Below are positions 14,662 to 39,392 of a DNA stretch of 64,000 nucleotides, one piece after another. The DNA is from Escherichia coli (GTDB lineage Bacteria; Pseudomonadota; Gammaproteobacteria; Enterobacterales; Enterobacteriaceae). How positions within the stretch are numbered: the stretch's first letter is position 1; every line of letters begins with the position of its first letter. The notes beneath the pieces were generated by a model, which saw only the letters and a program-made list of their open reading frames with translations, made no database searches and had not been told where the DNA came from. Position numbers and translations under genes: made by a program. The DNA is taken from NCBI RefSeq assembly GCF_036507355.1, contig NZ_AP027877.1; one strand, 5' to 3'.

Positions 14662-15130
14662 TCGCCCGCAGCCATCACTGACTGCGGGCGAAAGTGTAAA
14701 GCAGGTGCCTTACCACTCTGACCTGACAACCGGATATGCGGGGATTGCTCCCCGCACAACGGCTACTTCTTCGGTTCGTAAGCGAGAACAGCCTTAAACT
14801 CAATATTACGTTCCTTTACGGTGAACTCACACAGCGAGTCTCCGACCAGAAGCGTAAATCCCAGCACCGTCAAACACAGCACTATGACTGCCACAAGGGC
14901 ATATTTCGTCAGCATGTTTATATTGCCTCCATGCGAAGAAGGGACTACCATCCGAGTTGTTGAGGCTCGGAGTGGCAGCCCCAGGATTGATAGAAATATC
15001 TCCTGGGGCTTCATCTTTCCAGACCTCAGAGTTAACCTGAAACCGGAAAGCTTCAGGCACCCGCCGTTATCTTACCCTTCCTTAGCAAAATAGCTGTTTA
15101 TTTATACAGTGAATCCTGTTTCGGACTTCT
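14662..15130 (-). other. hokE-like type I toxin-antitoxin locus, copy 1 (repeat unit)
   Basis: About 470-bp unit containing a Hok toxin ORF, upstream mok-like leader and a terminal inverted repeat (cgcccgcag...ctgcgggcg); repeated with 503-bp period at 15165-15632. Confidence 0.8.
14763..14915 (-). CDS. hokE: Hok-family membrane toxin (HokE-like), copy 1
   Basis: 50-aa peptide [50 protein letters not shown], typical Hok/Gef toxin with one transmembrane helix. Confidence 0.85.
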
Positions 15131-15164
15131 GTCGGCAAAACTCATCATTGCTCTTAAAACGAAA

Positions 15165-15632
15165 TCGCCCGCAGCCATCACTGACCGCGGGCGAAAGTGT
15201 AAAGCAGGTGCCTTACCATCCTGACCTGACAACCGGATATGCGGGGATTACTCCCCGCACAACGGCTACTTCTTCGGTTCGTAAGCGAGAACAGCCCTGA
15301 ACTCAATATTACGTTCCTTCACCGTAAACTCACACAGCGAGTCTCCGACCAGAAGCGTAAATCCCAGTACCGTCAAACACAGCACTATGACTGCCACAAG
15401 GGCATATTTCGTCAGCATGTTTATATTGCCTCCATGCGAAGAAGGAACTACCATCCAAATTGTCTGGTTTGGAGTGGCAGCCCCAGGGTTGATAGAAATA
15501 TCTCCTGGGGCTTCATCTTTCCAGACCTCAGAGTAAACCTGAAACCGGAAAGCTTCAGGCACCCGCCGTTATCTTACCTTTGCTTAGCAAAATAGCTGTT
15601 TATTTATACAGTAAGTCCTGTTTCGGACTTCT
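15165..15632 (-). other. hokE-like type I toxin-antitoxin locus, copy 2 (repeat unit)
   Basis: Second unit, roughly 95% identical to copy 1 with scattered substitutions and a 1-nt indel in the leader. Confidence 0.8.
15266..15418 (-). CDS. Hok-family membrane toxin (HokE-like), copy 2
   Basis: 50-aa peptide identical to copy 1 except K41R (…[14 protein letters not shown]). Confidence 0.85.
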
Positions 15633-29775: not shown

Positions 29776-29924
29776 TCCTTCAGCAAACGGCAACTTTTAT
29801 AACCAGTGTAAAAATAACGTGCCGCAATAGTCATACCTATTAATGGTAAAAAGCTGTCACAATTCATAAAAAACCTTAATATACGCCACCCTAAACATAA
29901 CCAGCGTTAATGTAAGGTTTTTGT

Positions 29925-32162
29925 GTGGACTGGCTTCTTGATGTTTTTGCTACCTGGCTCTATGGCTTAAAAGTAATCGCGATAACGTTAGCGGTCATCA
30001 TGTTCATCAGCGGGCTGGACGATTTTTTTATTGATGTCGTCTACTGGGTACGCCGCATTAAACGCAAGTTGAGTGTTTATCGCCGCTACCCGCGAATGAG
30101 TTACCGCGAACTGTATAAACCAGATGAAAAACCGTTAGCGATTATGGTTCCGGCGTGGAATGAAACGGGCGTCATCGGCAATATGGCCGAGCTGGCGGCG
30201 ACCACGCTCGACTACGAAAACTATCATATCTTTGTTGGCACCTACCCCAACGACCCCGATACTCAGCGTGATGTTGACGAAGTGTGCGCTCGCTTCCCGA
30301 ATGTGCATAAGGTAGTCTGCGCGCGTCCTGGCCCCACCAGCAAAGCCGACTGTCTGAACAACGTGCTGGACGCCATCACCCAGTTTGAACGTAGCGCCAA
30401 TTTCGCATTTGCTGGTTTTATTCTGCATGACGCCGAAGATGTGATTTCACCGATGGAGTTGCGTCTGTTCAACTATCTGGTCGAGCGTAAAGATCTGATT
30501 CAGATCCCGGTATACCCATTCGAACGCGAATGGACGCACTTCACCAGCATGACTTACATTGATGAGTTTTCAGAACTGCATGGCAAAGATGTTCCGGTGC
30601 GTGAAGCCCTCGCCGGACAAGTGCCCAGCGCAGGCGTCGGCACCTGTTTCAGCCGCCGCGCCGTGACCGCACTGTTAGCTGACGGTGACGGTATTGCTTT
30701 CGACGTGCAGAGTCTTACTGAAGATTACGACATTGGCTTCCGCCTGAAAGAAAAAGGTATGACGGAAATTTTTGTCCGTTTTCCGGTGGTGGACGAAGCC
30801 AAAGAACGCGAGCAGCGTAAATTTTTACAGCACGCACGGACGTCAAACATGATCTGCGTGCGCGAATATTTCCCCGATACCTTTTCGACTGCGGTTCGAC
30901 AAAAATCTCGCTGGATCATCGGCATTGTTTTCCAGGGCTTTAAAACCCACAAATGGACCTCCAGCCTGACGCTGAACTACTTTCTCTGGCGCGACCGCAA
31001 AGGGGCAATCAGTAACTTTGTCAGCTTCCTCGCAATGCTGGTGATGATCCAGCTTTTGCTGTTGCTGGCGTATGAAAGTTTGTGGCCCGATGCCTGGCAT
31101 TTCCTTTCTATTTTTAGCGGCAGCGCATGGTTAATGACCCTGCTGTGGCTAAACTTTGGCTTGATGGTTAACCGCATCGTGCAGCGGGTGATTTTCGTCA
31201 CTGGCTACTACGGCCTGACGCAGGGGCTACTATCTGTCCTGCGTCTTTTCTGGGGCAACCTGATTAACTTTATGGCCAACTGGCGCGCGTTAAAACAGGT
31301 ACTTCAACACGGCGATCCACGTCGCGTCGCGTGGGATAAAACAACGCATGACTTCCCCAGCGTCACTGGCGATACCCGCTCGTTGCGCCCGTTAGGTCAA
31401 ATTCTGCTGGAAAATCAGGTCATCACTGAAGAACAGCTCGATACAGCACTGCGTAATCGCGTCGAAGGTCTACGCCTGGGCGGTTCAATGCTGATGCAGG
31501 GGCTGATTAGCGCCGAGCAGCTGGCACAGGCGCTGGCAGAGCAAAACGGCGTGGCGTGGGAATCCATCGATGCCTGGCAGATCCCGTCCTCGCTGATTGC
31601 CGAAATGCCGGCCTCCGTGGCGCTGCATTATGCGGTACTGCCGCTGCGTCTGGAAAATGATGAGTTAATTGTCGGCAGTGAAGATGGTATTGACCCGGTT
31701 TCGCTGGCGGCCCTGACACGTAAAGTCGGACGCAAAGTGCGTTACGTCATTGTTCTGCGGGGACAAATTGTCACGGGGTTACGTCACTGGTATGCACGCC
31801 GACGCGGTCACGATCCGCGGGCAATGTTGTACAATGCGGTTCAGCATCAGTGGCTCACGGAACAGCAGGCCGGTGAAATCTGGCGGCAATATGTGCCGCA
31901 TCAGTTCCTGTTCGCCGAAATACTGACCACGCTCGGTCATATTAATCGTTCAGCAATTAACGTGTTGTTATTGCGCCATGAACGCAGTTCTCTGCCGCTC
32001 GGCAAGTTTTTGGTCACCGAAGGCGTTATCAGCCAGGAAACGTTGGATCGCGTCCTGACAATTCAACGCGAATTACAAGTTTCGATGCAATCACTATTAC
32101 TCAAAGCAGGTTTAAACACAGAACAGGTTGCGCAACTGGAGTCCGAAAATGAAGGAGAATAA
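29925..32162 (+). CDS. nfrB: NfrB: inner-membrane family-2 glycosyltransferase with a C-terminal MshEN-type c-di-GMP-binding domain (phage N4 adsorption protein B)
   Basis: 745-aa ORF from a GTG start (MDWLLDVF...); GT2 motifs (DAEDV, QKSRW) and a C-terminal region resembling MshEN domains. Confidence 0.93.
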   Translation: MDWLLDVFATWLYGLKVIAITLAVIMFISGLDDFFIDVVYWVRRIKRKLSVYRRYPRMSYRELYKPDEKPLAIMVPAWNETGVIGNMAELAATTLDYENYHIFVGTYPNDPDTQRDVDEVCARFPNVHKVVCARPGPTSKADCLNNVLDAITQFERSANFAFAGFILHDAEDVISPMELRLFNYLVERKDLIQIPVYPFEREWTHFTSMTYIDEFSELHGKDVPVREALAGQVPSAGVGTCFSRRAVTALLADGDGIAFDVQSLTEDYDIGFRLKEKGMTEIFVRFPVVDEAKEREQRKFLQHARTSNMICVREYFPDTFSTAVRQKSRWIIGIVFQGFKTHKWTSSLTLNYFLWRDRKGAISNFVSFLAMLVMIQLLLLLAYESLWPDAWHFLSIFSGSAWLMTLLWLNFGLMVNRIVQRVIFVTGYYGLTQGLLSVLRLFWGNLINFMANWRALKQVLQHGDPRRVAWDKTTHDFPSVTGDTRSLRPLGQILLENQVITEEQLDTALRNRVEGLRLGGSMLMQGLISAEQLAQALAEQNGVAWESIDAWQIPSSLIAEMPASVALHYAVLPLRLENDELIVGSEDGIDPVSLAALTRKVGRKVRYVIVLRGQIVTGLRHWYARRRGHDPRAMLYNAVQHQWLTEQQAGEIWRQYVPHQFLFAEILTTLGHINRSAINVLLLRHERSSLPLGKFLVTEGVISQETLDRVLTIQRELQVSMQSLLLKAGLNTEQVAQLESENEGE

Positions 32163-35121
32163 CCTTAATCGCGTCATCGGATGGTCTGGTTTACTGCTGA
32201 CGTCTTTATTGAGTACCAGCGCACTCGCAGACAATATCGGCACCAGCGCAGAAGAGCTGGGGCTGAGCGATTATCGCCATTTTGTTATTTATCCCCGTCT
32301 CGATAAGGCGCTGAAGGCACAGAAAAATAACGACGAAGCAACCGCCATCCGCGAATTTGAATATATACACCAGCAGGTGCCGGATAATATTCCGCTGACT
32401 TTATACCTTGCGGAAGCCTATCGCCATTTTGGTCATGATGACCGGGCGCGGCTGTTGCTTGAGGATCAACTGAAACGTCACCCAGGAGATGCCCGACTTG
32501 AGCGCAGTCTGGCGGCTATTCCGGTTGAAGTGAAAAGCATTACAACTGTTGAAGAACTGCTTGCCCAGCAAAAAGCGTGCGATGCTGCGCCGACCCTGCG
32601 TTGTCGCAGTGAAGTCGGGCAGAATGCCCTGCGGCTGGCACAGTTACCTGTCGCCAGAGCGCAACTGAACGATGCGACGTTTGCTGCATCGCCGGAAGGA
32701 AAAACGCTGCGAACCGATCTGCTGCAACGGGCAATCTACCTGAAACAATGGTCCCAGGCAGATACGCTATACAATGAAGCACGCCAGCAGAACACATTAA
32801 GCGCGGCAGAACGCCGCCAGTGGTTTGATGTGCTTCTTGCCGGGCAGCTGGACGATCGGATCCTGGCACTGCAATCACAGGGGATCTTCACCGATCCTCA
32901 GTCATATATTACTTACGCGACCGCGCTGGCTTATCGTGGCGAAAAAGCACGCCTCCAGCATTATCTCATTGAAAATAAGCCGCTGTTTACCACGGACGCA
33001 CAAGAGAAAAGTTGGCTCTATCTGTTATCTAAATACAGCGCCAACCCCGTTCAGGCATTGGCGAATTATACGGTGCAGTTTGCCGATAACCGCCAGTATG
33101 TTGTTGGCGCGACGCTACCGGTGCTGTTAAAAGAAGGTCAGTACGACGCAGCGCAAAAACTGCTCGCCACCCTCCCCGCCAATGAAATGCTTGAGGAGCG
33201 TTATGCTGTCAGCGTGGCGACCCGTAACAAGGCTGAAGCTCTGCGTCTGGCACGCTTGCTGTATCAGCAAGAACCGGCAAATCTTACCCGCCTGGATCAA
33301 CTAACCTGGCAACTGATGCAGAACGAGCAGTCACGGGAAGCTGCCGATTTATTGCTGCAACGCTATCCTTTCCAGGGCGATGCGCGTATCAGCCAGACTT
33401 TAATGGCGCGACTGGCGTCTCTGCTGGAAAGTCATCCTTACCTGGCAACGCCGGCGAAGGTGGCGATTTTATCGAAACCCTTACCGCTGGCGGAGCAACG
33501 TCAGTGGCAAAGTCAGTTGCCGGGTATTGCAGATAATTGCCCGGCAATAGTTCGCTTGCTGGGCGATATGTCGCCTTCCTACGATGCTGCCGCCTGGAAC
33601 CGTCTGGCAAAGTGTTATCGGGACACGCTACCCGGTGTGGCGTTGTATGCATGGCTTCAGGCCGAACAACGACAACCGAGCGCCTGGCAACATCGTGCGG
33701 TAGCCTATCAGGCGTATCAGGTTGAGGACTACGCCACCGCACTGGCGGCCTGGCAGAAAATCAGTCTTCACGACATGAGCAATGAGGATCTGCTTGCTGC
33801 TGCCAATACCGCCCAGGCGGCAGGAAATGGTGCGGCTCGCGATCGCTGGCTACAACAGGCAGAACAACGTGGACTGGGAAGCAATGCCCTCTACTGGTGG
33901 CTGCATGCACAACGTTACATTCCTGGTCAGCCGGAACTCGCACTGAACGATCTCACGCGCTCAATCAATATTGCGCCTTCTGCCAACGCTTACGTTGCGC
34001 GGGCGACAATTTATCGCCAACGTCATAATGTCCCGGCCGCGGTGAGTGATTTGCGCGCCGCGCTGGAACTGGAACCGAATAATAGCAACATCCAGGCAGC
34101 GCTTGGTTACGCCTTGTGGGATAGCGGTGATATCGCACAGTCGCGGGAAATGCTCGAACAGGCGCATAAAGGGCTTCCGGACGATCCGGCACTGATCCGA
34201 CAACTGGCCTACGTGAACCAGCGTCTGGATGACATGCCTGCGACGCAGCACTACGCCCGGCTGGTGATTGATGACATTGATAATCAGGCGCTGATAACCC
34301 CATTGACGCCAGAACAAAATCAACAACGCTTCAATTTCCGCCGTTTGCATGAGGAGGTCGGTCGCCGCTGGACGTTCAGTTTCGATTCTTCTATCGGCTT
34401 GCGTTCCGGCGCAATGAGTACCGCTAACAATAATGTCGGCGGCGCAGCGCCAGGGAAAAGCTATCGTAGCTACGGGCAACTGGAAGCCGAGTACCGCATC
34501 GGACGCAATATGCTGCTGGAAGGCGACCTGCTCTCAGTTTATAGCCGCGTCTTTGCCGATACCGGAGAAAACGGGGTGATGATGCCGGTGAAAAATCCGA
34601 TGTCCGGCACCGGTCTGCGCTGGAAGCCGCTGCGCGATCAGATCTTTTTCCTCGCCGTCGAACAGCAGTTGCCGCTGAACGGGCAAAATGGCGCATCCGA
34701 TACCATGCTGCGCGCCAGCGCCTCATTCTTTAATGGCGGCAAATACAGCGACGAATGGCACCCGAACGATTCAGGCTGGTTTGCCCAAAACCTGTACCTC
34801 GATGCGGCGCAATATATCCGCCAGGATATTCAGGCGTGGACGGCAGATTATCGCGTCAGCTGGCATCAGAAGGTAGCTAACGGACAGACTATTGAGCCTT
34901 ACGCTCACGTTCAGGACAACGGCTATCGTGATAAAGGCACTCAGGGCGCGCAGCTTGGCGGTGTCGGGGTCCGCTGGAATATCTGGACCGGCGAGACGCA
35001 CTACGACGCCTGGCCGCACAAAGTCAGTCTCGGCGTCGAGTATCAACATACCTTTAAGGCGATTAATCAACGTAACGGAGAGCGCAACAACGCGTTTCTC
35101 ACCATTGGAGTGCACTGGTAA
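32149..35121 (+). CDS. nfrA: NfrA: outer membrane TPR/beta-barrel protein (phage N4 adsorption protein A)
   Basis: 990 aa from the ATG at 32149 (MKENNLNRVIGWSGLLLTSLLSTSALA signal peptide), overlapping the nfrB 3' end by 14 nt; C-terminal ...TIGVHW. Confidence 0.93.
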   Translation: MKENNLNRVIGWSGLLLTSLLSTSALADNIGTSAEELGLSDYRHFVIYPRLDKALKAQKNNDEATAIREFEYIHQQVPDNIPLTLYLAEAYRHFGHDDRARLLLEDQLKRHPGDARLERSLAAIPVEVKSITTVEELLAQQKACDAAPTLRCRSEVGQNALRLAQLPVARAQLNDATFAASPEGKTLRTDLLQRAIYLKQWSQADTLYNEARQQNTLSAAERRQWFDVLLAGQLDDRILALQSQGIFTDPQSYITYATALAYRGEKARLQHYLIENKPLFTTDAQEKSWLYLLSKYSANPVQALANYTVQFADNRQYVVGATLPVLLKEGQYDAAQKLLATLPANEMLEERYAVSVATRNKAEALRLARLLYQQEPANLTRLDQLTWQLMQNEQSREAADLLLQRYPFQGDARISQTLMARLASLLESHPYLATPAKVAILSKPLPLAEQRQWQSQLPGIADNCPAIVRLLGDMSPSYDAAAWNRLAKCYRDTLPGVALYAWLQAEQRQPSAWQHRAVAYQAYQVEDYATALAAWQKISLHDMSNEDLLAAANTAQAAGNGAARDRWLQQAEQRGLGSNALYWWLHAQRYIPGQPELALNDLTRSINIAPSANAYVARATIYRQRHNVPAAVSDLRAALELEPNNSNIQAALGYALWDSGDIAQSREMLEQAHKGLPDDPALIRQLAYVNQRLDDMPATQHYARLVIDDIDNQALITPLTPEQNQQRFNFRRLHEEVGRRWTFSFDSSIGLRSGAMSTANNNVGGAAPGKSYRSYGQLEAEYRIGRNMLLEGDLLSVYSRVFADTGENGVMMPVKNPMSGTGLRWKPLRDQIFFLAVEQQLPLNGQNGASDTMLRASASFFNGGKYSDEWHPNDSGWFAQNLYLDAAQYIRQDIQAWTADYRVSWHQKVANGQTIEPYAHVQDNGYRDKGTQGAQLGGVGVRWNIWTGETHYDAWPHKVSLGVEYQHTFKAINQRNGERNNAFLTIGVHW

Positions 35122-36012
35122 ATGCGTAAGTTCATTTTCGTATTGCTGACACTGCTTTTGGTCAGCCCTTTTTCCTTTGCGATGAAAGGTATTATCTGGC
35201 AACCACAAAACCGTGATAGTCAGGTTACCGATACCCAGTGGCAGGGGCTGATGAGTCAGTTACGTTTGCAAGGCTTCGATACCCTGGTTTTGCAATGGAC
35301 CCGTTACGGCGATGCATTTACCCAGCCAGAACAGCGCACGTTATTGTTTAAGCGGGCCGCAGCTGCGCAACAGGCTGGCCTGAAGCTGATTGTCGGGCTG
35401 AACGCCGATCCGGAATTTTTTATGCACCAGAAACAGTCGTCCGCAGCGCTGGAAAGCTATCTTAATCGCCTGCTGGCTGCCGATCTCCAGCAAGCCAGAT
35501 TATGGAGCGCCGCGCCTGGCGTAACGCCGGATGGCTGGTACATCAGCGCGGAAATTGACGACCTGAACTGGCGCAGCGAAGCCGCCCGTCAGCCTTTGCT
35601 AACATGGTTAAACAACGCGCAGCGGCTGATTAGCGATGTTTCAGCAAAACCGGTTTATATCAGTAGTTTTTTCGCCGGAAACATGTCGCCAGATGGCTAT
35701 CGCCAACTGCTGGAACACGTTAAAGCAACCGGCGTTAATGTCTGGGTACAGGATGGCAGCGGCGTGGATAAACTTACCGCTGAACAGCGTGAACGTTATC
35801 TACAGGCCAGCGCCGATTGCCAGAGTTCCGCCCCAGCAAGCGGCATTGTTTATGAACTGTTTGTCGCCGGCAAAGGCAAAACCTTTACAGCGAAACCGAA
35901 ACCGGACGCAGAAATTGCCTCGCTGTTAGCGAAACGTTCCTCTTGCGGTAAAGACACTCTCTATTTCTCTCTGCGCTATTTGCCCGTCGCGCACGGCATT
36001 CTCGAGTATTAA
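35122..36012 (+). CDS. ybcH: YbcH, secreted protein co-encoded with NfrA/NfrB
   Basis: 296-aa ORF starting immediately after the nfrA stop; signal peptide MRKFIFVLLTLLLVSPFSFA. Confidence 0.9.
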   Translation: MRKFIFVLLTLLLVSPFSFAMKGIIWQPQNRDSQVTDTQWQGLMSQLRLQGFDTLVLQWTRYGDAFTQPEQRTLLFKRAAAAQQAGLKLIVGLNADPEFFMHQKQSSAALESYLNRLLAADLQQARLWSAAPGVTPDGWYISAEIDDLNWRSEAARQPLLTWLNNAQRLISDVSAKPVYISSFFAGNMSPDGYRQLLEHVKATGVNVWVQDGSGVDKLTAEQRERYLQASADCQSSAPASGIVYELFVAGKGKTFTAKPKPDAEIASLLAKRSSCGKDTLYFSLRYLPVAHGILEY

Positions 36013-36194
36013 ATCTCCTCCAGGTAAGTCGGGTACGACCTGGCTTACCTCTTTCGCTCTCGTCAGAATTCCATCAAGATTAATTGCTAAAAAGCGTGCT
36101 AAAGAAAGAAGATCGTTATCGGCGAACGGGCCGATCACTCATGCAGGAAGCATAGATCCTTTGAGCGGAGTTTCTGATATCTGAGGAGTGCGAA

Positions 36195-36956
36195 ATGCAA
36201 TTGAGCAGCAGTGAACCTTGCGTGGTGATCCTGACCGAAAAAGAGGTAGAGGTAAGCGTCAATAACCATGCTACGTTTACCCTTCCGAAAAACTACCTGG
36301 CCGCCTTCGCGTGCAACAATAACGTCATTGAACTCTCAACGTTAAATCACGTATTAATCACCCACATCAACCGTAACATCATCAACGATTATCTGTTGTT
36401 TTTAAATAAGAACTTAACCTGTGTAAAGCCCTGGTCGCGGCTGGCTACCCCGGTTATCGCTTGTCATAGCCGTACACCGGAAGTGTTCCGGCTAGCCGCC
36501 AACCACAGCAAGCAGCAACCTAGCAAACCCTGCGAAGCGGAGTTGACGCGCGCATTGCTTTTTACCGTATTGTCTAACTTTCTTGAGCAATCGCGGTTTA
36601 TTGCCCTACTGATGTATATCTTACGCAGCAGCGTCCGCGACAGCGTCTGCCGCATTATTCAAAGCGATATTCAGCATTACTGGAATCTGCGAATTGTCGC
36701 CAGTTCGCTATGTTTAAGCCCCAGCCTGCTCAAAAAGAAATTAAAAAACGAAAATACCAGCTATAGCCAGATTGTCACAGAGTGTCGTATGCGTTACGCC
36801 GTACAGATGTTATTGATGGATAACAAAAATATCACTCAGGTGGCGCAATTATGTGGCTATAGCAGCACGTCGTACTTTATCTCTGTTTTTAAGGCGTTTT
36901 ACGGCCTGACACCGTTGAATTATCTCGCCAAACAGCGACAAAAAGTGATGTGGTGA
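36195..36956 (+). CDS. envY: AraC-family transcriptional regulator EnvY
   Basis: 253-aa ORF with a C-terminal AraC-type HTH (…ITQVAQLCGYSSTSYFISVFKAFYGLTP…). Confidence 0.9.
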   Translation: MQLSSSEPCVVILTEKEVEVSVNNHATFTLPKNYLAAFACNNNVIELSTLNHVLITHINRNIINDYLLFLNKNLTCVKPWSRLATPVIACHSRTPEVFRLAANHSKQQPSKPCEAELTRALLFTVLSNFLEQSRFIALLMYILRSSVRDSVCRIIQSDIQHYWNLRIVASSLCLSPSLLKKKLKNENTSYSQIVTECRMRYAVQMLLMDNKNITQVAQLCGYSSTSYFISVFKAFYGLTPLNYLAKQRQKVMW

Positions 36957-37001
36957 AGGGCAAAGCGGAAACGGATAAGACGGGCATAAATGAAGAAGAA
37001 A

Positions 37002-37078
37002 TGGCGCGCCCTGCAGGATTCGAACCTGCGGCCCACGACTTAGAAGGTCGTTGCTCTATCCAACTGAGCTAAGGGCGC
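37002..37078 (-). tRNA. argU: tRNA-Arg (anticodon UCU), argU
   Basis: Reverse complement reads GCGCCCTTAGCTCAGTTGGATAGAGCAACGACCTTCTAAGTCGTGGGCCGCAGGTTCGAATCCTGCAGGGCGCGCCA: cloverleaf with TTCGAATCC T-arm, UCU anticodon and CCA end. Confidence 0.93.
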
Positions 37079-37320
37079 GTTGATACCGCAATGCGGTGTA
37101 ATCGCGTGAATTATACGGTCAACCCTTGCTGAGTCAATGGCTTTTGATCTGGTTGCTGAACAAGTGAACGACCGCGTCTGATTTTCTGATTTATTTCGCT
37201 ATAGCGGCAAACAAATGCACACCGCTGCGCATCTGAATCAAGAAAACCCGTATTTTCATGTATCAAAGTACAATTTACCGCCCTAACGGAAAATTGTCCG
37301 CTCCTATGAGACTGGTAACT

Positions 37321-37529
37321 ATGAAACCAACGTCGGTGATCATTATGGATACTCATCCTATCATCAGAATGTCTATTGAAGTTCTGTTGCAAAAAAACAG
37401 TGAATTGCAGATTGTCCTGAAAACGGATGATTACCGCATAACCATCGATTATCTCCGAACCCGTCCTGTTGATTTAATCATTATGGATATAGACTTGCCC
37501 GGAACAGACGGTTTTACCTTCCTGAAAAG
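37321..37529 (+). pseudogene. fimZ: 5' fragment of response-regulator gene fimZ (receiver domain only), truncated by IS1
   Basis: Encodes MKPTSVIIMDTHPIIRMSIEVLLQKNSELQIVLKTDDYRITIDYLRTRPVDLIIMDIDLPGTDGFTFLKR, then runs into the IS1 terminal repeat (…VMTPTY*). Confidence 0.85.
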
Positions 37530-37544
37530 GGTAATGACTCCAAC

Positions 37545-38048
37545 TTATTGATAGTGTTTTATGTTCAGATAATGCCCGATGACTTTGTCATGCAGCTCCA
37601 CCGATTTTGAGAACGACAGCGACTTCCGTCCCAGCCGTGCCAGGTGCTGCCTCAGATTCAGGTTATGCCGCTCAATTCGCTGCGTATATCGCTTGCTGAT
37701 TACGTGCAGCTTTCCCTTCAGGCGGGATTCATACAGCGGCCAGCCATCCGTCATCCATATCACCACGTCAAAGGGTGACAGCAGGCTCATAAGACGCCCC
37801 AGCGTCGCCATCGTGCGTTCACCGAATACGTGCGCAACAACCGTCTTCCGGAGCCTGTCATACGCGTAAAACAGCCAGCGCTGGCGCGATTTAGCCCCGA
37901 CATAGCCCCACTGTTCGTCCATTTCCGCGCAGACGATGACGTCACTGCCCGGCTGTATGCGCGAGGTTACCGACTGCGGCCTGAGTTTTTTAAGTGACGT
38001 AAAATCGTGTTGAGGCCAACGCCCATAATGCGGGCTGTTGCCCGGCAT
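37545..38048 (-). CDS. insB: IS1 InsB (transposase frame; InsAB' is made by -1 frameshift)
   Basis: 167-aa [28 protein letters not shown]… overlapping the insA 3' end in the -1 frame. Confidence 0.95.
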
Positions 38049-38242
38049 CCAACGCCATTCATGGCCATATCAATGATTTTCTGGTGCGTACCGGGTTGAG
38101 AAGCGGTGTAAGTGAACTGCAGTTGCCATGTTTTACGGCAGTGAGAGCAGAGATAGCGCTGATGTCCGGCGGTGCTTTTGCCGTTACGCACCACCCCGTC
38201 AGTAGCTGAACAGGAGGGACAGCTGATAGAAACAGAAGCCAC
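37967..38242 (-). CDS. insA: IS1 InsA
   Basis: 91-aa protein [42 protein letters not shown]…. Confidence 0.95.
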
Positions 38243-38525
38243 TGGAGCACCTCAAAAACACCATCATACACTAAATCAGTAAGTTGGCAGCATCACCAAT
38301 TATCTTAATCCTTTGACAAGGAAATAAGTCAGTTCCAGATTTACAACGCCATCATGGACGAAAAATGAAGCTTTCAATCTCAGCGACCTCAGCGACGGTG
38401 CGCCTAACCTTCGCAAGAGGTCGCTTCACGCGATAAATCTGAAACGAAACCTGACAGCGCGCCCCGCTTCTGACAAAATAGGCGCATCCCCTTCGACCTA
38501 CGTAACAGATGGAATCCTCTCTCTG

Positions 38526-39392
38526 ATGGCAGCAAAGATTATTGACGGTAAAACGATTGCGCAGCAGGTGCGCTCTGAAGTTGCTCAAAAAGTTCAGGCG
38601 CGTATTGCAGCCGGACTGCGGGCACCAGGACTGGCCGTTGTGCTGGTGGGTAGTAACCCTGCATCGCAAATTTATGTCGCAAGCAAACGCAAGGCTTGTG
38701 AAGAAGTCGGGTTCGTCTCCCGCTCTTACGACCTCCCGGAAACCACCAGCGAAGCGGAGCTGCTGGAGCTTATCGATACGCTGAATGCCGATAACACCAT
38801 CGATGGCATTCTGGTTCAACTGCCGTTACCGGCGGGTATTGATAACGTCAAAGTGCTGGAACGTATACACCCGGACAAAGACGTAGACGGTTTCCATCCT
38901 TATAATGTCGGTCGTCTGTGCCAGCGCGCGCCGCGTCTGCGTCCCTGCACCCCGCGCGGTATTGTCACGCTGCTTGAGCGTTACAACATTGATACCTTCG
39001 GCCTCAACGCCGTGGTGATTGGCGCATCGAATATCGTTGGCCGCCCGATGAGCATGGAACTGTTGCTCGCAGGTTGCACCACCACCGTGACTCACCGTTT
39101 CACTAAAAATCTGCGTCACCACGTAGAAAATGCCGATCTGTTGATCGTTGCCGTCGGCAAGCCAGGCTTTATTCCCGGTGACTGGATCAAAGAAGGCGCA
39201 ATTGTGATTGATGTCGGCATCAACCGCCTGGAAAATGGCAAGGTTGTGGGCGACGTCGTGTTTGAAGACGCGGCTAAACGCGCCTCATACATTACGCCTG
39301 TTCCGGGCGGCGTTGGCCCGATGACGGTTGCCACGCTGATTGAAAACACGCTACAGGCGTGCGTTGAATATCATGATCCACAGGGTGAGTAA
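38526..39392 (+). CDS. folD: Bifunctional methylenetetrahydrofolate dehydrogenase/cyclohydrolase FolD
   Basis: 288-aa [26 protein letters not shown]…. Confidence 0.97.

Follow-up and report, generated by a model that had tools for sequence, protein, structure and literature searches.

Which system is encoded by the compact three-gene block at positions 29925-36012 of a 64,000-nucleotide (nt) stretch of Escherichia coli DNA (contig NZ_AP027877.1 of NCBI RefSeq assembly GCF_036507355.1; hereafter the window), and what is the part of each gene in it? An earlier reading of the bare sequence (the original prediction) had proposed nfrB-nfrA-ybcH, a candidate exopolysaccharide (EPS) synthesis and secretion module that acts as the phage N4 receptor. 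Domain searches, curated equivalog models and two published studies (PMC8669469, PMC8669472) support this proposal, and we are close to certain that the block is the intact E. coli nfrB-nfrA-ybcH operon, a synthase-dependent EPS system; no evidence contradicting the identification was found. As the prediction had also stated, the system is already characterized and the window brings no new one: the nfrBA-ybcH operon, including its 14-nt overlap, was described experimentally by Junkermeier & Hengge (2021, mBio; PMC8669469), Sellner et al. (2021, mBio; PMC8669472) presented the same model and named the product the N4 glycan receptor, and RefSeq annotates all three K-12 genes accordingly. The one place where our evidence exceeds published work is the hypothesis that YbcH is a hydrolase.

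All three genes lie on the + strand. In the six-frame list of open reading frames (ORFs), nfrB (29925-32162) starts with GTG and encodes 745 amino acids (aa); the nfrA ORF is listed from a TTG at 32128 to 35121, and its first in-frame ATG, at 32149, yields a protein of 990 aa (32149-35121); ybcH (35122-36012) starts with ATG and encodes 296 aa. Reading the junctions showed the packing to be exactly as tight as predicted: the nfrA ATG (32149-32151) lies upstream of the nfrB TAA (32160-32162), giving the 14-nt overlap, and the nfrA TAA (35119-35121) is followed by the ybcH ATG at 35122, with a 0-nt gap. Each product exceeds the cut-off of its NCBIfam equivalog model: NfrB scores 1332.7 bits against NF008411 (cut-off 1170; aa 7-728, for a model of 723 positions), NfrA 1890.6 bits against NF007302 (cut-off 1223; positions 1-990) and YbcH 521.9 bits against NF007404 (cut-off 344). 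Reading frames this long (745, 990 and 296 aa), all with matches to curated equivalog models, lie far outside what chance would produce. By domain architecture, the operon encodes together an inner-membrane synthase, a receptor for cyclic di-GMP (c-di-GMP) and a tetratricopeptide repeat (TPR)/porin exporter, as in synthase-dependent EPS systems. An identity as a defense system was rejected, with no match of the anti-phage models of PADLOC to NfrB, NfrA, YbcH or the downstream gene product EnvY.

Compared with K-12 MG1655, the operon is colinear over its 6088 nt, without indels and with 72 substitutions (1.2%), and the K-12 locus has the same gene order, overlaps and length, flanked likewise by cusRS on the upstream and envY on the downstream side. 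NfrB shows no amino-acid difference from the K-12 protein that was studied (b0569; 100% identity), all 30 nucleotide differences being synonymous, while NfrA is 99.3% (7 of 990 aa differ) and YbcH 99.0% identical (3 of 296 differ). RefSeq names the K-12 proteins 'cyclic di-3',5'-guanylate-activated glycosyltransferase' (NfrB), 'exopolysaccharide secretion system outer membrane protein NfrA' and, for ybcH, 'putative exopolysaccharide secretion system auxiliary component'. A sequence search of a 2026 copy of the PDB found no solved structure of NfrB, NfrA or YbcH.

The prediction had assigned to NfrB a family 2 glycosyltransferase (GT2) domain with a QKSRW motif and a C-terminal, MshEN-like c-di-GMP-binding domain, and Pfam, NCBIfam and motif checks located both. 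The GT2 catalytic domain (30132-31070, +; aa 70-382) is covered by PF13641 and PF13632, with matches to Glyco_trans_2_3 (E 2e-40) and Glyco_tranf_2_3 (E 4e-35; aa 70-332), and it holds the active-site signatures of a processive GT2 enzyme, namely D169 within HDAED, T265-E266-D267 and QKSRW at 326-330. These motifs are invariant among homologs, and substitutions D169A, D267A and W330A abolished N4 plating with protein levels kept (PMC8669469).

The MshEN domain of NfrB (31386-31808, +; aa 488-628) consists of tandem 24-residue c-di-GMP motifs (488-540) followed by an alpha/beta subdomain. NCBIfam NF053729, a model of the MshE-related c-di-GMP-binding motif, spans aa 489-540, the Pfam MshEN model (PF05157) matches aa 542-628 (E 4e-14), and the tandem-motif residues L490, G491, R517, G519, L537 and Q540 are all present. 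An AlphaFold2 (AF2) model of aa 481-745, built on a 25-sequence alignment, reached a predicted local distance difference test (pLDDT) value of 90.4. Its best PDB matches in Foldseek were the N-terminal domain of MshE (MshE-N) with bound c-di-GMP (5htl; 26% identity, TMt 0.75) together with the GSPII domains of PilF, in agreement with the sequence matches of NfrB in the PDB, which include PilF and MshE (5htl). The modeled C-terminus thus resembles c-di-GMP-bound MshE-N. For NfrB(414-745), the published Kd for c-di-GMP is ~1 uM. Substitutions in the MshEN domain (L490A, L490A/L537A, G491L) abolish or lower N4 plating (PMC8669469); both sets of data come from the K-12 protein, which is identical to NfrB here.

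Beyond this domain, NfrB carries an internal repeat of its tandem-motif region (31983-32156, +; aa 687-744). BLASTP aligned aa 480-545 with aa 630-745 at 36% identity over 58 aa (E 1e-8), and a regular expression search detected a third full-consensus MshEN-type motif at 691-714, PLGKFLVTEGVISQETLDRVLTIQ, followed by a degenerate fourth. Its residues G693, L696, L711 and Q714 are conserved in 25 NfrB homologs down to 40% identity. In several of the 25, including that of Rhodanobacter, the position equivalent to G491 of motif I is Asp, and there the C-terminal motif is intact. The model shows three consecutive helix-hairpins in the repeat region. The third motif could be a second ligand site, or else a structural or dimerization element.

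For NfrA, described in the prediction as a large secreted TPR protein with a C-terminal barrel-like region, Pfam and motif checks located the export signal, the TPRs and the NfrA_C region, as expected of the full-length equivalog. The N-terminus is signal-like, MKENNLNRVIGWSGLLLTSLLSTSALA|DN, with a signal peptide of aa 1-27 ending in SALA|DN; TPR families above cut-off, including TPR_19 and TPR_14, match between about aa 60 and 704; and NfrA_C covers aa 809-977 (E 7e-67). The protein ends in FLTIGVHW, with the alternating hydrophobic residues and terminal aromatic residue typical of the beta-signal of outer-membrane proteins, and it has been modeled as a 16-strand barrel structurally similar to PgaA, BcsC and AlgE (PMC8669472).

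How would these parts work together? In the inner membrane, c-di-GMP bound to the C-terminal MshEN domain would activate sugar polymerization by the GT2 domain of NfrB; c-di-GMP binding and the need for both GT and MshEN residues are established in the literature. The local source of the ligand would be DgcJ, a diguanylate cyclase whose gene lies elsewhere and which interacts with NfrB and is specifically required (PMC8669469). The substrate would most probably be UDP-N-acetylmannosamine (UDP-ManNAc) made by WecB, which is needed while the rest of the pathway for enterobacterial common antigen (ECA), such as wecC, is not (PMC8669469). We infer the chemistry of the polymer, as we do its route through a pore in NfrA, whose TPR region and C-terminal outer-membrane barrel would mediate export. 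At the surface, phage N4 attaches to the polymer, its primary receptor (the N4 glycan receptor), before it binds NfrA. Motility, too, is impeded by the polymer at high c-di-GMP, a condition under which the Nfr system has been found to hinder it (PMC8669469). YbcH would be a periplasmic accessory component, a putative glycoside hydrolase (GH). The locus is thus the N4 receptor pathway and a textbook case of local c-di-GMP signaling, all published in 2021. It also forms the receptor pathway for several Vequintavirinae- and phi92-like phages.

This architecture is close to that of other known systems. Like Bcs (BcsA-BcsB-BcsZ-BcsC), Nfr has a processive GT2 synthase that c-di-GMP activates and that bears the D, TED and QxxRW motifs, together with a TPR and beta-barrel outer-membrane exporter and, encoded in the operon, a periplasmic protein that for Nfr is putatively GH-like. 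Unlike Bcs, it senses c-di-GMP through MshEN rather than PilZ, has no BcsB-like subunit and probably uses UDP-ManNAc instead of UDP-glucose; YbcH is a predicted DUF4434 TIM barrel, whereas enzymes of the BcsZ type are GH8 (alpha/alpha)6 barrels. Compared with the poly-beta-1,6-GlcNAc system Pga (PgaCD-PgaB-PgaA), the Nfr operon encodes no PgaD and no deacetylase domain, and its c-di-GMP site is a dedicated MshEN domain, not the PgaC-PgaD interface. The N-terminal MshEN (GSPII) domains of MshE, PilB and PilF, ATPases from type IV pilus and type II secretion systems, have an overall fold in common with NfrB, as well as tandem motifs of the form RLGxxLLxxGLIxxxxLxxxLxxQ; in NfrB, however, a glycosyltransferase replaces the secretion ATPase as fusion partner, and the domain is followed by the extra helical region with the third consensus motif.

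What, then, is the function of YbcH? Pfam assigned it to DUF4434 (E 3e-69), and a scan at E<=10 returned this family only, with no sequence link to any CAZy family. Against the PDB, phmmer with YbcH yielded noise only and hmmsearch with the YbcH family profile yielded nothing. Because sequence offers no link to solved structures or to other Pfam families, the argument for a hydrolase rests on fold and conservation. An AF2 model built on a 52-sequence alignment (42-90% identity) has a pLDDT of 93.2, a predicted TM-score of 0.90 and eight beta-alpha units. In Foldseek against the PDB, it matched barrels of GH14, GH10, GH164, GH35 and GH5_18, mixed with generic TIM barrels and with modest TM scores. 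The comparison table for YbcH lists values of 19.9 for BT_0435 (4h41), 17.0 for the GH164 beta-mannosidase, 15-17 for GH5 mannanases, 16.4 for Cwp19 and 16.3 for the GH domain of PgaB/BpsB (6au1), the periplasmic hydrolase of the synthase-dependent system for poly-N-acetylglucosamine.

An exhaustive profile search with the YbcH family gathered ~800 clusters. Among 127 full-length representatives at 23-45% identity to YbcH, E144 is kept in 127 (100%) and E245 in 125 (98%); the other residues conserved across the family are Q58-W59, Y140, D147, Q210, G212 and G214. In the model, E144 sits at the C-terminal end of strand beta4 (138-145) and E245 at that of beta7 (241-245), so that in this (beta/alpha)8 barrel strands 4 and 7 each carry a carboxylate at the C-terminal end. 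The '4/7' enzymes of clan GH-A have their acid/base and nucleophile in these places. YbcH reads S-A-E144-I-D-D and does not have the Asn-Glu (NE) acid/base motif; since no Asn precedes E144, we do not file it in clan GH-A. On this model, YbcH resembles a GH barrel and probably functions as one. That it is the glycoside hydrolase of the Nfr system, with E144 and E245 as the putative catalytic pair, has in our estimation an even or slightly better chance of being correct; by analogy, it would be the counterpart of BcsZ, the C-terminal domain of PgaB, PslG or PelA. In the searchable literature, no paper ties DUF4434 or a hydrolase role to YbcH, and the sole mention of DUF4434 comes from 2026 work on gene transfer to ciliates, which is unrelated.

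The original prediction had called YbcH a secreted protein. An N-terminal export signal is indeed present (MRKFIFVLLTLLLVSPFSFA|MKG), and the published localization is periplasmic rather than secreted (PMC8669469). In that study, YbcH is dispensable for N4 infection, is described as a 'periplasmic putative scaffold' and is said to have no cleavage site and to remain membrane-anchored. We observed that Ala20, at -1 of a possible signal-peptidase site S-F-A|M in the N-terminal region (35122-35184, aa 1-21), is invariant in 52 homologs, which fits a cleaved signal peptide.

Other readings of YbcH and of the locus deserve consideration. Instead of cleaving the polymer, YbcH may be a non-catalytic periplasmic scaffold or carbohydrate-binding TIM barrel, a 'pseudo-glycosidase' that guides the polymer from NfrB to NfrA. 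It is termed a putative scaffold in both PMC8669469 and a 2023 review (PMC10211494), and the deletion, which only partly suppresses the motility phenotype (PMC8669469), is mild enough to fit this role. The absence of both the Asn typical of clan GH-A before E144 and any sequence link to CAZy families fits it as well. Such a role, however, hardly explains why two carboxylates at the ends of beta4 and beta7 should be near-universally kept at 23-45% identity. Mild deletion phenotypes are, moreover, generally known for the hydrolases BcsZ and PslG of other synthase-dependent systems. We place the scaffold somewhat short of an even chance. Returning to the hydrolase, we consider evenly balanced the combined proposal that YbcH is the periplasmic glycoside hydrolase of the Nfr system, founds a DUF4434 GH family with E144 and E245 as its catalytic pair and trims or releases a ManNAc-based N4 glycan receptor, and that NfrB 691-714 could be a second nucleotide-binding or dimerization element tuning activation by c-di-GMP. 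The fold and conservation data make the role of YbcH a directly testable hypothesis, and if it hydrolyzes the Nfr polymer, YbcH would be a handy reagent to isolate and characterize the N4 glycan receptor. As for ybcH being a mere bystander, with three genes adjacent by chance, separately transcribed and functionally unrelated, its dispensability for infection and the partial motility suppression would fit. But the 14-nt overlap and the 0-nt gap speak against chance adjacency, no internal consensus promoter or terminator stands out, and in a 2025 preprint using droplet-based randomly barcoded transposon sequencing (RB-TnSeq), ybcH is reported to contribute in part to N4 sensitivity. In addition, Rhodanobacter terrae encodes a YbcH homolog (44% identity) in an Epimerase_2(WecB-like)-GT2/MshEN-TPR/NfrA_C-DUF4434 cluster with 4-nt gene overlaps, which reproduces the synteny claimed in PMC8669469 and keeps the gene order at ~44% protein identity. 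Chance adjacency is therefore highly improbable, and the three E. coli genes appear, from their junctions, to be translationally coupled.

The view of 1989-1991, in which NfrA and NfrB are plain N4 protein receptors, one in the outer and one in the inner membrane, that serve adsorption and DNA entry and have no enzymatic product, survives in the NCBIfam name of NfrA, still 'phage receptor', and NfrA is still regarded as the secondary, irreversible protein receptor in the model of PMC8669469. This view must nevertheless contend with GT2 active-site motifs that are intact and invariant among homologs, with the loss of N4 plating in GT-dead point mutants of normal protein level, with the need for wecB but not for the rest of the ECA pathway, and with the linkage of a WecB-like epimerase to the cluster in distant bacteria. 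Published results on GT point mutants and on wecB/wecC have already refuted it, and we give it next to no credence. Some observations set limits to the main reading without contradicting the identification. The polymer is chemically undefined in the literature searched, and dgcJ and wecB lie outside the window, so pathway completeness in this strain rests on genes elsewhere. The cusS-nfrB intergenic region (29776-29924, +; 149 nt) should hold the nfrBA-ybcH promoter, and a sigma-28 search there with TAAAGTTT-N10-12-GCCGATAA gave a best match of 10/16, typical of shuffled sequences.

We accordingly do not claim a sigma-28 promoter for nfrB, the best match being no better than in shuffled sequence, and no sigma-70 consensus was found in the same region. 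An nfrB::lacZ reporter showed FlhDC/FliA-dependent expression of the flagellar class 3 type (PMC8669469); because no recognizable sigma-28 consensus accompanies this published dependence, the FliA effect may be indirect. Across the operon, a scan for sigma-70 promoters and terminators revealed nothing above shuffled expectation, hence no convincing internal promoter or terminator.

Where does the transcript end? Ten nt after the ybcH stop lies a hairpin (36022-36050, +) with a perfect 13-bp stem and a 3-nt loop; its predicted folding energy is -19.1 kcal/mol (z -3.5), a value reached by 0 of 200 shuffles. It is followed by a C/U-rich tract without a clean U-run, and is likely the 3' end or terminator of the operon transcript. 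The hairpin falls within the 182 nt between the ybcH stop and the start of envY (36195-36956, +; 253 aa, ATG start). The prediction had taken EnvY as an AraC regulator of unclear relation to the module: the AraC-type helix-turn-helix is confirmed (Pfam HTH_AraC and HTH_18), and the relation can now be narrowed. Since the 13-bp hairpin follows the ybcH stop and no envY homolog adjoins the Rhodanobacter terrae cluster, envY is better treated as a neighbor in a separate transcription unit, outside the module. It is unmentioned in PMC8669469.

How widespread is the operon? Among 5426 complete E. coli genomes, 5350 match the region, and 5047 of these contain 80% or more of it. In about 300 of the 5350, less than 80% of the operon is present; natural loss of the N4 receptor pathway is thus recurrent. 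In E. coli 23CRST011 (NZ_AP045770.1, L003 516-1779), an IS1-mediated deletion removed nfrB and most of nfrA, leaving cusS, IS1 and then a 3' pseudogene fragment of nfrA. In some other E. coli (GCA_012116805.1, L006 1-1770), the operon was destroyed by rearrangements of type VI secretion system (T6SS) elements: the resulting ORFs join VgrG, or prePAAR/PAAR with DUF6531, in frame to a YbcH part that begins at residue 50 or 54, and the chimeras lie directly upstream of envY. We considered whether these VgrG-DUF4434 and prePAAR/PAAR-DUF4434 proteins (P0208, P0209) are T6SS effectors with a YbcH-like toxin domain, which would have favored an enzymatic YbcH, and rejected this reading because from residue 50 or 54 on they are 98-99% identical to E. 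coli YbcH and lie at the same locus directly upstream of envY. A short protein resembling the NfrB C-terminus (P0128) has a PAAR motif alongside MshEN. In Rhodanobacter terrae (L004 1-1246), a divergent DUF2334 gene adjoins the wecB-nfrB-nfrA-DUF4434 cluster and hints at polymer modification; we take DUF2334 to be a polysaccharide-deacetylase-like family.

The surroundings of the operon differ from those of K-12 beyond envY. K-12 has ompT, appY and the DLP12 prophage after envY, whereas in this strain that segment is absent (36957-37258) and envY is immediately followed by argU (tRNA-Arg, anticodon UCU; 37002-37078, -) and then by a fimZ truncated by IS1. The IS1 copy is complete (768 bp, 37530-38297); its terminal inverted repeats measure 23 nt, and insA/insB lie on the - strand. 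This element truncates fimZ after ~97 codons (fragment 37258-37551) and is directly followed by folD (38526-39392), so that neither the remainder of fimZ nor any of the sfm fimbrial operon found in other E. coli is present here. The best identity of the region to any complete E. coli genome in the collection is 99.4%. Together with the absence of ompT/appY/DLP12 and the IS1 deletion, this value suggests a strain or lineage outside the collection, possibly Shigella-like.

Farther upstream, an apparent 7.8-kb deletion proved to be an artifact of joined BLAST pieces; the window starts in entS. A direct repeat of 299 nt at 14662-15463 (96% identity; spacing 503 nt) represents a tandem pair of hokE type-I toxin loci that lie between entD and ybdK, an arrangement also annotated in E. 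coli strain XJ34.

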